A stretch of 64,000 nt of DNA, taken from IMG/VR virus record IMGVR_UViG_3300031998_000005. One strand, written 5' to 3'. Both the position numbers and the translations under genes were made by a program. Positions 1 to 7,102 of the stretch are shown here, piece by piece. The number at the start of each line of letters is the position of its first letter. Position 1 is the first letter of the stretch. Source of the stretch: a virus (Duplodnaviria > Caudoviricetes). Under the pieces are notes generated by a model. It was not told the origin of the DNA. It saw only the letters and a list, made by a program, of their open reading frames with translations, and did not search any database.

Positions 1-318
1 CCATACAACGTAGCAACGGCTTCGCTTGTCTTGGATTCCGTATGGAGCAGATACGGGAGATTGCCTCCCCGTATGCTTGCAGAACCTTACAATCGTGGAT
101 TGTTTGATGACTGCATAAACGCATTTATGGAATGGGTCGGGGAAACATCGGACGTTATGCGTAGCAAGTATCTGCGACAGATGGCTACGGATTGCACCCA
201 TTATTTCCTGGGGTCGTTCGCCAATCGTAGCCCCGACCACGACCGCTTGTTGAACAGCACCAAAGAGCAAGTAAGAAAGGAACTCAACAAGATTATGGAG
301 CGTGAAGCCTACGGATAA
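1..318 (+). CDS. hypothetical protein, 5' partial
   Basis: Frame open from base 1 to TAA 316-318. Confidence 0.7.
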   Translation, partial: PYNVATASLVLDSVWSRYGRLPPRMLAEPYNRGLFDDCINAFMEWVGETSDVMRSKYLRQMATDCTHYFLGSFANRSPDHDRLLNSTKEQVRKELNKIMEREAYG

Positions 319-337
319 AAAAAATTTAGCGAACCCC

Positions 338-366
338 TTGACAATCGGATTTCAGTAATCTATATT
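338..366 (+). promoter_or_regulatory. sigma70-type promoter of tRNA operon
   Basis: TTGACA 338-343, 17-nt spacer, TATATT 361-366. Confidence 0.85.
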
Positions 367-389
367 ATGGACCGTATAGGAAAATCACT

Positions 390-473
390 ATGAGAAAGAA
401 CTACGCAAATAATTTCTTCTTTGAAGCCGAGGCTAGTGCCGAAGCCTATTTTGCGTATGCCTTGCAGTGGTGA
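390..473 (+). CDS. leader (attenuator) peptide of tRNA operon, MRKNYANNFFFEAEASAEAYFAYALQW
   Basis: AGGA at 378-381, ATG 390, TGA 471-473; codons 4-24 are all N/Y/A/F/E/S(AGT), matching the six downstream tRNAs. Confidence 0.85.
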   Translation: MRKNYANNFFFEAEASAEAYFAYALQW

Positions 474-516
474 TTTTCCAAGTGCTTTTAATGGGTTAAA
501 CAGGAAACTCCACTGC
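464..516 (+). promoter_or_regulatory. antiterminator helix (2:3)
   Basis: GCAGTGG 464-470 pairs CCACTGC 510-516; TTTCC 475-479 pairs GGAAA 503-507; excludes the terminator. Confidence 0.75.
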
Positions 517-539
517 GTATGCGGTGGAGTTTTTCTTTT
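503..539 (+). terminator. attenuator intrinsic terminator (3:4) upstream of first tRNA
   Basis: AAACTCCACTGC-GTAT-GCGGTGGAGTTT stem followed by TTCTTTT. Confidence 0.85.
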
Positions 540-547
540 ATCCTTAT

Positions 548-622
548 GTGGCGGTAGCGTCAGCCTGGTAGAGCAGGGGACTGAAAATCCTCGTGTCGGT
601 GGTTCAAATCCACCCCGTCGCA
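548..622 (+). tRNA. trnF: tRNA-Phe(GAA)
   Basis: Cloverleaf; anticodon arm GGGGA-CTGAAAA-TCCTC; no encoded CCA. Confidence 0.93.
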
Positions 623-633
623 CGAACAAATTT

Positions 634-706
634 GGTTTCATCGTCTAGTGGTCAAGGACATTAGGTTTTCAACCTAAAGACTAGGGTTCAAGCCCCTATG
701 AAACTA
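634..706 (+). tRNA. trnE: tRNA-Glu(TTC)
   Basis: GGTTTCA/TGAAACT acceptor; TTAGG-TTTTCAA-CCTAA anticodon arm. Confidence 0.92.
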
Positions 707-710
707 CTAT

Positions 711-783
711 GGGACGTTAGTTCAGTTGGTAGAACGCCTGCCTTGCAAGCAGGAGGTCATCGGTTCAAGTCCGATACGCTCCA
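711..783 (+). tRNA. trnA: tRNA-Ala(TGC)
   Basis: CCTGC-CTTGCAA-GCAGG arm; G3:U70 Ala identity pair. Confidence 0.93.
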
Positions 784-792
784 CTACATTTT

Positions 793-865
793 TCTGCCCT
801 AGTTTAATGGTAAAACACCCGCCTGTTAAGCGGAGAGAGTCCACGTCCGAATCGTGGGAGTAGAG
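793..865 (+). tRNA. trnN: tRNA-Asn(GTT)
   Basis: CCGC-CTGTTAA-GCGG arm; G73; T-loop TCCGAAT. Confidence 0.88.
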
Positions 866-872
866 CGAATTT

Positions 873-955
873 GGATAGGTATGCAAGTGGCTAAAGCAGG
901 CGGTCTGTAAAACCGCCCCCTTCGGGGTTCGTAGGTCCGAAACCTACCCTATCCA
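873..955 (+). tRNA. trnY: tRNA-Tyr(GTA)
   Basis: GCGGT-CTGTAAA-ACCGC arm; long variable arm; A73. Confidence 0.93.
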
Positions 956-960
956 CGAAT

Positions 961-1043
961 GGAGAATTACGCTAATTGGTAAGCGACCTCGGTGCTAACG
1001 AGGCGGGTGCAAGCCCTTACAGGTTCAAGTCCTGTATTCTCCG
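961..1043 (+). tRNA. trnS: tRNA-Ser(GCT)
   Basis: CCTCG-GTGCTAA-CGAGG arm; long variable arm; G73. Confidence 0.9.
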
Positions 1044-1146
1044 TTAGGTTTTTGACAGTATTTTGTGAATATCCTGTTTGCTTTTTGTAGTAAATAGTTA
1101 TATATTAAGTATAAATTCTACAAAATCCCCCGACAAGGAAATCACA

Positions 1147-1464
1147 ATGGCTGAAAATTTCTACAAACTCTTACATCAGCGGATAGCCGAACACGCTGAA
1201 AAAGACCTGGCTAGGTATGGAATATGCCTAAACCGCACACCCGCCAAGCCCATCACACGGCAACGCAAATGGCTTGACAAGTTCAAGGCTCTCCACGGGA
1301 TGTCTTACAGCACGTGGCTTTACAGGCAGAAACATAGCCACCCCGCAGAAACAACAGAAAAGCCCGTAGAACCGCAGGCAGAAAGCCCAATAGAGCAGAC
1401 AACCACACCGATAGAAACCCCGCTGATGTTGCCACAGGAAACGCCTATTCCTGCCCTCGCCTAG
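1147..1464 (+). CDS. hypothetical protein, P/E/T-rich tail
   Basis: AAGGA RBS; TTGCTT-17-TATATT promoter 1078-1106. Confidence 0.7.
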   Translation: MAENFYKLLHQRIAEHAEKDLARYGICLNRTPAKPITRQRKWLDKFKALHGMSYSTWLYRQKHSHPAETTEKPVEPQAESPIEQTTTPIETPLMLPQETPIPALA

Positions 1465-1513
1465 CCTGCTCCCGCACCCTAGAAATTTTTTCATAAAAAT
1501 CTAACAAGTCCTA

Positions 1514-1542
1514 TTGACAGGAACTTGGTATTTTGTTATATT
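1514..1542 (+). promoter_or_regulatory. conserved phage early promoter
   Basis: TTGACA-17-TATATT with GGTATTTTGT spacer box. Confidence 0.85.
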
Positions 1543-1578
1543 TAGGGATAAGATAACCACATTAACCGAGAACCCCCG

Positions 1579-2019
1579 ATGATTAAAATAAGAACCGAGT
1601 TATTCACGAATGCTCCTAACGATTGTAAAATTACTTGTGATGACAAGTATCTAATCCTATGCTTGCACGAGATTGTCAAGACTTTGGAGATTGAGAAAGT
1701 CACGGACATTCAAGATAACGCTTTTTCGTTTTCAGTAAAGCACAAGGACGAAATCCTGTCCGTTATAGGACAAATGGAAACCAAGGTTCTCCCGTTCTGT
1801 GCCGAGGCACATCGTCGTAGATGGTGGCGAAAGAAACAAAAGTTTTGGCTTGCTTGGGCTGCGGGGTGGGGAATCCTTGACTTTACCTTTGAAATCATAG
1901 ATTGGCTCAACGGCAAGTGGCAGAACGCCTTGGTCATCGGGCTATGCGGACTATGGGTAGTTCTGTGGTCACTCCGCAACTATTGGGAAGCAAAGAACTT
2001 TGAAAATGGGGAGTCTTGA
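1579..2019 (+). CDS. hypothetical membrane protein
   Basis: Two C-terminal hydrophobic segments. Confidence 0.7.
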   Translation: MIKIRTELFTNAPNDCKITCDDKYLILCLHEIVKTLEIEKVTDIQDNAFSFSVKHKDEILSVIGQMETKVLPFCAEAHRRRWWRKKQKFWLAWAAGWGILDFTFEIIDWLNGKWQNALVIGLCGLWVVLWSLRNYWEAKNFENGES

Positions 2020-2022
2020 CCT

Positions 2023-2420
2023 ATGGCAAATAAAAAAATTGATAAAGTATGGGAAGCCCTGGGAAAGATTGTAGAAAAGCGAAACATCACAATCTATACA
2101 GCGACCCAACCGCCTAGACCCGATTGTGGACATTCTCATTATAATCCACCTACGGGAAATGAAATAGTTGTTGTAGATTACGTGGGGCATATACTCCCAA
2201 AGGATTCCGTATGAAAACTTGGTTTGATAAAAAATTCAGCACTACCGAATGGTGGGAAACCCGATTGAAGAACGTAGCCAAATCTCTTGGCTTGGAAATC
2301 TCGTGGGCTAGTTGCTATTTCGCACACTTGACAGCGGGGCGACACCTTAATTGGCGTTGCGTTGGCGGGTGGCTCAAGCACTTGGACTATGCCACGAACC
2401 ACCCAGGTTTTGACTTTTAA
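2023..2420 (+). CDS. two small hypothetical proteins (2023-2214, 2211-2420)
   Basis: ATGA-coupled ORFs. Confidence 0.6.
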
Positions 2421-2441
2421 TAAAAAATTTCAAAAATACTA

Positions 2442-2470
2442 TTGACAAGTGCTTGGTATTTTGTTATATT
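2442..2470 (+). promoter_or_regulatory. conserved phage early promoter
   Basis: TTGACA-17-TATATT; ACAACCAC..AACCGAGG leader. Confidence 0.85.
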
Positions 2471-2505
2471 TGGGTTAAAGACAACCACCAACCGAGGATA
2501 ACTCA

Positions 2506-2886
2506 ATGCAGAAAATGATTACGAACCCGATTCTTTCGGCTCTCAAAAAGACCCCGTATGCTTCTACCGATGGCGTGGAAAGGGATGATAAGAAAGTCAT
2601 CGCCCGCTATTTCCTGCCTGGAACGGGATGCACGTGGTATGTGCTTGAAGACGATGGGTTCTTCACGGACGATGAACACAAGGACGCAGACCACATTGAC
2701 CCGAATATGATTGTGTTCGGGGCTGCGACCATCGGCTACGGCTTGGAACTTGGCTCTATCTCTTTGAAGGAAGTGTTTGAAACACGTGGAGCATTCGGAC
2801 TCCGTGCCGAACGGGATATTTCTGTGAAGCCCCTTGAAGAAACTCTTGGCACTCTCCGCAAGCGTTATGGCGAGGATTGGCAGTAA
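2506..2886 (+). CDS. DUF2958-like protein
   Basis: ARYFLP..CTWYVLE..FG..ELGSISLKE..ERD pattern. Confidence 0.65.
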   Translation: MQKMITNPILSALKKTPYASTDGVERDDKKVIARYFLPGTGCTWYVLEDDGFFTDDEHKDADHIDPNMIVFGAATIGYGLELGSISLKEVFETRGAFGLRAERDISVKPLEETLGTLRKRYGEDWQ

Positions 2887-2887
2887 T

Positions 2888-4011
2888 ATGACCCTTACGG
2901 AACTCATTGAAGCAAGCAAGAACGGTCCTGTGTATATCCGTCAAAAGCACCCCCGCCACGTAGATGGGGGGCTTTGTCGGGAGGCATATTCTACGACCTA
3001 TCTGCTTGTGAACTCCCTGTCCAAAGTTCCCTGTGGTTATAACTACGGGGTTCTCTTACAGGATTTCGCCTTGGAAGTTCGGATGTCCGTGGAATATGTA
3101 GAGTATTACGAACCTTGGACGGGAAAGCAGTTTTCCCCGACTTGTGTTATTGAATTTGACTGCGACAAGTTTCAGCACGTCACCGAAGAATGGCTCTCCC
3201 AATGGGAGTTCGTGGAAGACAACCGCCTGCCCGATAACATCGCAAATTTTGTAGAAGACAAACTTTACACCGAAATGGACAATGCCGAAACCCGTTGGAT
3301 TGCGTGGCAAGGCATACAGGAGAAGATTGATGAACGCCTTTAATATCGTTGTAGATGACTCCGAGCAGTCCTTTATGATTATCGCTATGAACCGCACCCT
3401 GCTTACCTGGATGCACGATTTTCTTAAAGATAATGATGCACTGCAAAAGTATGGACCGTTCCTTAATGGAATCAGCCGTAGCGTATCTCGTATGTGTGTG
3501 GACAGGTTTATTGTCGGCACAAACGATACAAAGGTATGCTACGACCTCGCTGATGCCGTGCAGAAAGCCGTTGTGGACGCTATTCAGCATAAGTTGATAC
3601 CTACCCCTAGCGAACAATTTAGTAGCCTGGAAGACGCTATTAAACTGCTCTCCGACAAGTGAGGATTTTATGAACGCACAAGTGGAACTATTTACCATTG
3701 AAATTCAGTCCCTTTCGGATTACGAATACCTCGCCCAAAAGGTCAAGGACTACCACGATGATGTGGTGTCTGCCCTGTTGAGCCTTTCCCATCGTAATCC
3801 CAAGAAATATAACCTGTCGGCTTTCCGTATCTGCCACGATGCCGATTTCGTATGGACAGCGGGAACTGATACGATTACCGCTACCACGCAGGACATTCTT
3901 GCTCTCTATCTTGGTGGAAATCAAGCGTGGGCACAGATGAAACAAGCCGAGCATAAGGCTGAAATAAACGCTTTCAAACGTAAAATCAAAAAGGAAGGTT
4001 TGTGGATATGA
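2888..4011 (+). CDS. three hypothetical proteins (2888-3343, 3330-3662, 3670-4011)
   Basis: Tightly packed co-oriented ORFs. Confidence 0.7.
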
Positions 4012-4481
4012 CAAACATCGTAATTGTAGATATTGACGGCACGATTACCGATGCTTCGGAACGTGCTAAAAAGTATCTTTCCAAAGAACCGAAAGATTGG
4101 GATAAGTTCTACGATGCCTGTGGTAGCGACAAGCCTATCCAGGAAATCGTGGACCTTGTTTGTGCCTTGTCGGATTCCTACGGGATTGTGTTCTGCACAG
4201 GCAGACGCAGAAGCACGAACGATGCCACCCGTCAGTGGCTTCGTGATAACTTAAAGACGTTCCGATACAGCCGTAACGGTGTGATGGGCTTGCCTATCCT
4301 GTATCGCAACGATGGCGACACCCGACACGACACCCTCGTGAAACCCGAACTGCTTGACGAATATCTGCGACAGCACCCCGATTACAGGGTTTCGTTCATT
4401 CTTGAAGACCGAAACTCTATGGTCAAGAAATGGCGGGAACTTGGTTTCAAGTGCCTGCAAGTAGCCGATGGAGATTTCTAG
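4008..4481 (+). CDS. HAD-family polynucleotide 3'-phosphatase (T4 PseT phosphatase-domain-like)
   Basis: DIDGT motif, TGR, EDR..MV..WR.LG..C.QVADGDF C-terminus. Confidence 0.85.
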   Translation: MTNIVIVDIDGTITDASERAKKYLSKEPKDWDKFYDACGSDKPIQEIVDLVCALSDSYGIVFCTGRRRSTNDATRQWLRDNLKTFRYSRNGVMGLPILYRNDGDTRHDTLVKPELLDEYLRQHPDYRVSFILEDRNSMVKKWRELGFKCLQVADGDF

Positions 4482-6541: not shown

Positions 6542-7102
6542 ATGAAAACATTAGCACTTTACGCAGGGAGTTTCAACCCTATCCACGCAGGGCATATCCA
6601 GGTCATTGAAACCGCACAGCAGATTTTCGGAGAAGACCACGTAGGCATCCTGCTTGCAGACAATCCGCAGAAGACCTATGGGGTGTCCAAGGATAAACGC
6701 TCCGATTGGTTGTGGCAAACCGTCGGCAAGCGTCCGTATTATGTGGATGGGTTCGTGTGTGATTTCTGCGATGAAAAAAGTAGGGAAATCTCATACGGGG
6801 AACAGGTGTGGGATAACATTGTGCTTATCCGTGGTGTCCGTTCGGGAGCAGACCTTGATACCGAAATCCCGATGGCGGGCTACAACTACAACATTTCGCA
6901 CGGCAAATACCCGACTATCCTAATCCCGACCCCTGCGAACCTTCGTGACCTGTCATCTTCGGCAGTCCGTGTTCTCGCCAAGCGGGATTTCAACGAGTTC
7001 TTTGACATCCTGTATAAGCCCTACGCTCCGCAGAAAATATCCTACTCCAAATGGGTAGATGTTGCCGAAGACGTTTGGAAAACCTACCACGAGTCAAAAT
7101 GA
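6542..7102 (+). CDS. coaD: phosphopantetheine adenylyltransferase-like (HxGH nucleotidyltransferase)
   Basis: YAGSFNPIHAGH, IRGVRSGADLDTE, LSSSAVR motifs. Confidence 0.75.
   Translation: MKTLALYAGSFNPIHAGHIQVIETAQQIFGEDHVGILLADNPQKTYGVSKDKRSDWLWQTVGKRPYYVDGFVCDFCDEKSREISYGEQVWDNIVLIRGVRSGADLDTEIPMAGYNYNISHGKYPTILIPTPANLRDLSSSAVRVLAKRDFNEFFDILYKPYAPQKISYSKWVDVAEDVWKTYHESK

Follow-up and report, generated by a model that had tools for sequence, protein, structure and literature searches.

What controls the tRNA genes of a phage, and why should a small open reading frame (ORF) directly ahead of such genes be written largely in the codons that they decode? Both questions are raised by a stretch of 64,000 nucleotides (nt) from a virus of the Caudoviricetes (IMG/VR record IMGVR_UViG_3300031998_000005), which is called the window here and is part of a large gut phage. 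Near the left end of the window a promoter is followed by a leader ORF of 27 codons, a terminator hairpin and an array of six tRNA genes (Table 1). A first-pass annotation, made from the sequence alone, had read this cassette as an attenuator that senses the tRNAs encoded behind it, and the promoter, the leader ORF, the terminator and the six tRNA genes were all found where that annotation had placed them. The analysis reported here makes it likely that the cassette is a leader-peptide transcription attenuator of the trp/ilv type, which would depend on the ribosome and control the phage tRNA operon.

Codons 4 to 24 of the leader ORF (399-461) are 21 consecutive codons (21/21) that are all drawn from the 14 codons in the six boxes read by the array, and the single serine codon among them is AGT. 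This had been claimed before and was confirmed by counting the runs in all six frames: the longest in-set run of the 64-kb window, with 21 codons, is the one in the leader, and the runner-up has seven. Codons of the six boxes have a frequency of 0.223 when all frames are counted and of 0.292 in the likely genes of the window, and a run of 21 codons is expected approximately 3e-9 to 8e-7 times in the window after correction for all start positions.

As an empirical control we searched for the best-matching mini-ORF within 280 nt upstream of each tRNA array and scored it against the codon set of that array, using 58 arrays and singletons from XacN1, Phosso, Vibrio D479 and Stenotrophomonas CM1, four large phages that have been cultured. 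The leader ORF has a binomial score of 4e-10, compared to 2e-3 or worse for 57 of the 58 controls and 8e-7 for the remaining one. This one match is a 13-codon ORF of Xanthomonas phage XacN1 (AP018399.1; L047:11656-11697), which is located 93 nt upstream of the genes for tRNA-Lys, tRNA-Lys and tRNA-Tyr and has Lys or Tyr at seven of its 12 codons after the start. The XacN1 region is structured (z = -2.4); a hairpin with a T-run was not seen there, and it has no clear terminator. The XacN1 mini-ORF may be a second, independent case, this time in a cultured phage.

The terminator between the leader ORF and the array is strong, with a G+C-rich stem of 14 base pairs (bp; 503-534) that leads into a T-run (530-539), and the T-run ends only 9 nt before tRNA-Phe. 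Transcription from the promoter at 338-366 is predicted to start at about position 373. Promoter-like sites on the array strand were found neither between terminator and array nor within the array. Transcripts from the 338-366 promoter must therefore cross the terminator to yield tRNA.

When IMG/VR, JGI metagenomes and GTDB genomes were scanned with exact words and patterns, 12 related loci were identified in ruminant-gut phage contigs, which represent seven leader variants (A to G). The Shine-Dalgarno (SD) sequence, the ATG, the terminator, the antiterminator and an open frame of 27-28 codons are present in all seven. The AGGAAA 5' of the ATG is unchanged throughout, and the promoter is retained in variants A, B, C, F and G. 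Since the genes flanking the cassette in variants D and E are unrelated to those flanking it in the window, the cassette moves as a unit. Searches with the flank proteins gave no additional loci, and a scan of IMG/VR with a degenerate peptide pattern only re-found two known contigs (L002 and L015), its other 12 matches being chance matches in unrelated frames away from tRNAs. Among GenBank phages, blastn of positions 1-3000 gave generic tRNA matches only and tblastn of the leader peptide gave none. The sole hint at the host is that the variant G contig was binned in a Clostridia genome.

Comparison of the variants reveals which changes the leader tolerates. The in-set runs are 19-21 codons long. 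Codons 5-22 have undergone seven replacements, namely Y/F at codon 5, F/Y at codons 10 and 11, E/A at codon 14, S/Y/N (two events) at codon 16 and A/E at codon 19, and have gained one codon, an additional in-frame TTT in variant F that preserves the frame. All replacements in this part stay within the six-residue set, to which only 15% of random non-synonymous neighbours belong, and several further changes are synonymous. Changes out of the set are confined to codon 4 (variants B and G) and to codon 23 onward. The leader ORFs are 81-100% identical in DNA among the variants; individual tRNA genes of the same anticodon and order go down to 54-70% identity. To judge from these sequences, selection is on the codon class and not on the peptide.

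The region from 372 to 545 folds at -62.1 kcal/mol (z = -5.5 against shuffled sequences). The three mutually exclusive helices named in the first-pass annotation were recovered: the protector, in which segment 1 pairs with segment 2 (379-391:467-479, with an inner helix 402-409:450-457), the antiterminator formed by segments 2 and 3 (464-479:503-516) and the terminator formed by segments 3 and 4 (503-516:521-534). An antiterminator of 13-15 bp, which joins the stop-codon region to the 5' arm of the terminator, is kept in all seven variants. The energy of this 2:3 duplex is -14 to -19 kcal/mol across the variants and -8 to -10 kcal/mol (standard deviation 2.5) with shuffled segment 3, and the native duplex wins in 295-300 of 300 trials for every variant. 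Pairing in the relatives reaches 97.6% for the terminator helix, where three pairs have changed in a compensatory manner, and 94.7% for the antiterminator, in which a compensatory exchange of A-U to G-C at 466:514 parallels a change from wobble to C-G in the terminator. Both antiterminator strands of variants E, F and G differ from those of the window with the pairing retained. For the inner hairpin (402-409:450-457), 95.8% of the cells are paired across the relatives.

Folding with ribosome footprints was carried out on nine distinct sequences; the nascent RNA was cut just short of the 3' terminator arm, and the ribosome covered positions -15 to +12 around the A-site codon. When pairs were barred from spanning the ribosome, the full antiterminator of 13-15 bp formed with the A site at codons 2-21, was eroded stepwise at codons 22-24 and was absent with the ribosome at the stop codon, in all nine sequences (9/9). 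Six of them switch in the same way without this ban. The RNA behaves in the model as had been predicted for it: stalls at codons 2-21 free the antiterminator and a ribosome that has reached codon 24, a later codon or the stop codon masks it. In-set conservation stops at the same place as the functional window, near codon 21-22, and this supports a caveat raised together with the original proposal, namely that stalls at the last control codons may still mask segment 2. Codons 23 and 24, which lack conservation, fall beyond that window.

Altogether, the conserved ORF, the terminator and antiterminator with their compensatory changes, the switching with the ribosome footprint and the in-set replacements support the reading as ribosome-mediated attenuation in silico. 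According to this scheme, the host RNA polymerase would initiate at the 338-366 promoter, and a ribosome would load on the leader ORF and read 19-21 successive codons that specify Phe, Glu, Ala, Asn, Tyr and Ser (AGY). With fast decoding, the ribosome would arrive at the TGA and cover segment 2 (464-479), segments 3 and 4 would pair, and transcription would end at the T-run at approximately 535-539, ahead of tRNA-Phe. If the ribosome stalls within codons 2-21, for shortage of a charged cognate tRNA, segment 2 would stay free and capture the emerging segment 3; this 2:3 pairing would block the terminator and allow the six tRNAs to be transcribed. The operon products would relieve the stall, and the circuit would therefore be a negative-feedback controller of decoding capacity for the six codon families. 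The features of the sequence suggest that the leader ORF is translated and that the terminator works. The trigger would most likely be a rising demand for these tRNAs, or a falling supply of them from the host, during infection, and in view of the published roles of phage tRNAs (see below) tRNA cleavage by defence nucleases is a conceivable trigger as well. A more far-reaching proposal sees the cassette as a sensor of tRNA supply with several inputs, which is silent while the host tRNAs suffice and is switched on within seconds if any of the six is depleted, by host shut-off or by tRNA-cleaving defence nucleases, and which would be an example of a class of codon-matched attenuators over tRNA genes, widespread in large phages and as yet undescribed; this we regard as speculative and rather doubtful.

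Table 1. Features of the cassette in the window and location of the seven leader variants. Positions without a locus name refer to the window; for the variants the position of the leader ORF is given.
Feature	Position	Strand	Remarks
Promoter, sigma-70 type	338-366	+	TTGACA-17 nt-TATATT; 11/12 consensus matches
Shine-Dalgarno sequence and start codon	378-392	+	AGGA(AAA), 378-381; ATG, 390; also protector segment 1 (379-391)
Leader ORF	390-473	+	27 codons; TGA stop (471-473) inside segment 2
Control-codon run	399-461	+	codons 4-24: Ala 7, Phe 4, Asn 3, Tyr 3, Glu 3, Ser-AGT 1
Serine codon AGT	435-437	+	sole Ser codon in the run; its box is read by anticodon GCU
Inner hairpin	402-457	+	within the ORF; 402-409:450-457
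Segment 2	464-479	+	pairs with segment 1 (protector) or segment 3 (antiterminator); holds the stop codon
Segment 3	503-516	+	5' arm of terminator and 3' strand of antiterminator
Segment 4	521-539	+	3' arm of terminator (521-534) and T-run (530-539)
tRNA array	548-1044	+	six genes
tRNA-Phe(GAA)	548-623	+	
tRNA-Glu(UUC)	634-707	+	
tRNA-Ala(UGC)	711-784	+	
tRNA-Asn(GUU)	793-866	+	
tRNA-Tyr(GUA)	873-956	+	
tRNA-Ser(GCU)	960-1044	+	
Variant A	window:390-473; L004:1089-1172	+; +	array Phe Glu Ala Asn Tyr Ser
Variant B	L007:519-602	+	also L001, L008; array Phe Glu, 833-nt insert, Tyr Ser
Variant C	L002:7068-7151	-	215-kb contig, rated complete; also L003; array Phe Glu, 833-nt insert, Tyr Ser
Variant D	L005:801-884	-	also L006, L009; array Phe Glu Ala Asn Tyr
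Variant E	L030:610-693	+	135-kb contig with terminal repeats; array Glu Ala Asn Tyr
Variant F	L029:1841-1927	-	213-kb contig; array Phe Glu Ala, 213 nt, Asn Tyr Ser
Variant G	L046:7590-7673	-	contig binned in Clostridia genome, water-buffalo cecum; array Phe Glu Ala, 841-nt ORF insert, Asn Tyr Ser

The first-pass annotation had expected that the codons of the leader co-vary with the tRNA content of the array, and this holds in part. For serine the agreement extends to seven of seven variants: codon 16 is AGT wherever the array includes tRNA-Ser(GCU), in five variants (A, B, C, F and G; 5/5), and is TAT in variant D and AAT in variant E, both of which are without that tRNA. Serine codons of the TCN type are only found in the non-functional tail of the leader. 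For alanine, asparagine and phenylalanine the expectation failed, and these cases are the first of several observations that speak against the proposed attenuator. Variants B and C have lost tRNA-Ala and tRNA-Asn, yet 6-7 Ala and 2-3 Asn codons remain in their leaders, and in the 215-kb relative (variant C) the extra tRNAs are two for Met and one for Leu(CAA), so that Ala or Asn tRNAs are not supplied from elsewhere in this genome. Variant E has no tRNA-Phe in its complete 135-kb genome and keeps three Phe codons. Even the agreement for serine probably goes back to one evolutionary event, since variants D and E share their flanks, and the counts of covariation are few because all variants belong to one phage lineage.

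Further points on the same side concern the mechanism itself. The protector duplex of the window (1:2, -18.1 kcal/mol) is as stable as the antiterminator duplex (2:3, -16.9 kcal/mol), and when pairs are allowed to span the ribosome the protector persists for stalls in the middle of the ORF (codons 11-19 in the window, 12-17 in variant G and 13-17 in variant E). Four of the seven Ala codons in the leader are GCC, which the UGC anticodon may read poorly. In addition, Firmicute polymerases tend to outrun ribosomes; if the host is a Firmicute, the scheme would need a pause for coupling.

How the leader could keep codons for absent tRNAs can be pictured if loss of a tRNA gene exerts little pressure on the leader and gain of one does, which is plausible. 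That FFF has become FYY in variant E was considered as a sign that the leader tracks the loss of tRNA-Phe; this was rejected, as variant G, with tRNA-Phe in its array, has just as many Phe codons. The other tRNA genes of the 215-kb relative (two Met and one Leu-CAA) have no leader and are located directly behind a promoter or a gene.

The retention of codons in variants B, C and E for tRNAs gone from the array would also fit an attenuator that reports amino-acid starvation or general translation stress instead of tRNA supply. Such a device would be on whenever translation slows, and its codon set would mirror the codon usage of the phage, where the six boxes account for 29% of the codons in the genes of the window; moreover, the mechanism cannot separate low tRNA from uncharged tRNA. 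The composition of the run makes this explanation unlikely. It consists of exactly the six families of the array, and Leu, Lys, Asp and Val are absent from it although they are commoner than several of the six. Furthermore, the core uses only the AGT box of serine, and AGT is gone when tRNA-Ser(GCU) is gone.

The leader ORF might alternatively encode a functional micropeptide, aromatic and acidic, with the hairpin as its ordinary terminator; the tRNAs would then be made by leak-through or from elsewhere, and the codon match would be incidental. Phages commonly have short genes that come with a promoter and a terminator to themselves, most tRNA arrays of the four cultured phages are without such a leader, and the peptide is fairly well conserved among the variants. 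The kind of replacement found in the variants is difficult to reconcile with this explanation: E/A, S/Y, S/N and A/E would not count as conservative in a peptide, and nevertheless each of them keeps to the set. The match of 21/21 codons to the downstream tRNA set would be unexplained and the conserved antiterminator over the stop codon would have no role. A promoter-like site after the terminator, from which the array could be transcribed, is lacking, and the peptide has no match to a protein family or, with tblastn, to phages. We therefore consider a micropeptide gene to be very unlikely.

It is likewise highly improbable that the leader is an RNA switch that works independently of translation, for instance by T-box-like binding of tRNA, as a protein-binding leader or as an element for processing or stability of the tRNA precursor, with the ORF as a by-product. 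The strong structure of the leader, the conserved inner hairpin and the parts of the leader that are invariant in DNA could all be expected of such a switch. A translated leader is indicated by the preservation of frame, SD sequence and ATG in all variants, including the clean insertion of 3 nt, by synonymous and in-set changes, which indicate constraint at the level of codons, and by a switch point that follows the position of the ribosome. An Rfam scan of positions 1-3000 at E <=1 gave only the tRNAs and one chance match, with no leader family (trp, his, thr or leu), T-box or other family among the matches. That a mere chance ORF came to lie in a structured region between promoter and terminator is of negligible probability, since short ORFs are frequent but the corrected expectation for this run, its conservation in seven variants and the scan of the 58 control arrays all speak against it.

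The window (548-866) and a near-identical phage (L004:1248-1569) have tRNA genes for Phe, Glu and Asn that are 65-68% identical, with the same anticodons and order; the flank proteins of the two are 92-95% identical and the leader ORF is identical. To judge from these comparisons, tRNA genes appear to be swapped singly, with identity and order kept. The tRNA-Ala genes of the window (711-784) and of variant D (L005:497-570) differ by paired changes in the D arm (TAGTTCA...GAAC vs TAGCTCA...GAGC), by which an AGCT is lost in the window. The A+T-rich insert of 833 nt that stands in place of the tRNA genes for Ala and Asn, between tRNA-Glu and tRNA-Tyr, in variants B (L007:839-1670) and C (L002:5999-6830) contains an ORF of 265 amino acids (aa) with a weak match to HNH endonucleases (E = 4e-4, just under the cut-off of Pfam), and its two copies are about 88% identical. 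The sequence suggests that this insert is a homing-endonuclease gene that removed two tRNA genes. Variant G carries an insert of 841 nt with 34% G+C at the Ala/Asn junction (L046:6430-7270), with an ORF of 265 aa that has zinc-finger-like motifs, and in variant F the same junction holds 213 nt without a tRNA call (L029:1314-1526). The Ala/Asn junction is an insertion hot spot. In addition, a 135-kb relative (IMGVR_UViG_3300028886_000004) contains a tRNA-like gene (L042:1501-1617; 35.7 bits) with normal acceptor, D and T arms and 61 nt instead of the anticodon arm, which is not called by ARAGORN.

Several features in the neighbourhood of the cassette were recorded. An identical strong promoter (TTGACA, 17 nt, TATATT) is present three times within 2.2 kb (338-366, 1514-1542 and 2442-2470), each time with small ORFs behind it, and this stretch looks like an early-gene region that is transcribed by the host polymerase. 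In variant C the leader frame is open for 63 further codons upstream, through the promoter (L002:7152-7340, minus strand), and ribosomes from an upstream gene could read into the leader on transcripts that begin further upstream. At a distance of 3 kb downstream of the array the window encodes a stand-alone polynucleotide 3'-phosphatase domain of the PNKP type (PF25109, E = 2e-30; 4002-4478, plus strand). RNA ligases of the Rnl1 and Rnl2 families were not found in three complete or near-complete relatives, with the limit that the Rnl1 control gave no match anywhere; this context of phosphatase and ligase gives no support for a link to tRNA repair or defence. A cytidylyltransferase-like protein (PF01467, E = 1e-9) is encoded at 6542-7099 on the plus strand.

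If the attenuator works as proposed, the phage would gauge the speed of decoding for each codon family and top up the respective tRNAs on demand, with a product that acts on its own sensor. This would provide a mechanistic handle on the retention of tRNA sets in phages, as the leader would spell out which codons matter, and a textbook mechanism would then also apply in viruses and to genes of a new class. The leader might also be used as a natural reporter for tRNA availability. The natural variants, in which the leader is kept and tRNA genes are lost, swapped or interrupted by presumed homing-endonuclease genes, would be ready test material.

The closest counterparts among known systems are the leader-peptide attenuators of enterobacteria, such as ilvGMEDA (Ile/Leu/Val), thr (Thr/Ile), trpL, hisL and pheL. 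Like the ilv and thr attenuators, the phage cassette has a short promoter-proximal ORF led by an SD sequence, a block of regulatory codons for more than one amino acid, the alternative helices 1:2, 2:3 and 3:4, a stop codon placed for the masking of segment 2 and, ahead of the first gene under control, an intrinsic terminator. Unlike them, it is viral, covers six codon families and has no match to a curated leader family, and it would control tRNAs instead of biosynthetic enzymes. The product of the operon would also act directly on the sensor, as the tRNAs decode the leader. Classical attenuators precede genes for biosynthesis, transport or synthetases, whereas the genes controlled here would be six tRNAs (for general background on leader attenuators see PMC2965389 and PMC3082878). 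The first-pass annotation knew of no described attenuator over a tRNA array, and our literature search found no published precedent for the control of tRNA genes by an attenuator either.

A step closer in function are aminoacyl-tRNA synthetase genes under attenuator control, for which pheST with its pheM leader is an example. As proposed for the phage cassette, attenuation governs a part of the machinery that decodes the same amino acid; in contrast to it, these leaders are cellular, one amino acid is sensed and the controlled gene acts on charging and not on the tRNA itself. A hisS leader is described in bacilli (PMC2965389). The T-box riboswitches of Firmicutes resemble the phage cassette in that the status of tRNA selects between terminator and antiterminator upstream of translation-related genes. 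The T-box binds uncharged tRNA directly, via specifier codon and T-box sequence and without a ribosome, whereas the phage cassette would sense via a translated ORF.

As far as is known, genes for tRNAs are regulated at their promoters, and those of phages are usually regarded as constitutive cargo. The tRNA and rRNA operons of bacteria are subject to stringent and growth-rate control at the promoter. This control has in common with the phage cassette that the transcription of tRNA is set by the translational status. It acts at initiation, however, and lowers tRNA synthesis on starvation, whereas the phage device would act after initiation and raise tRNA synthesis when decoding slows (for the context of promoter control see PMC5179076). 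According to three papers (PMC10264068, PMC11555353, PMC11464382), tRNAs of phages, tRNA-Tyr among them, stand in for host tRNAs depleted by defence systems and keep translation going when these are cleaved. As far as they were read, these papers treat the tRNAs themselves and not a sensor that regulates them.

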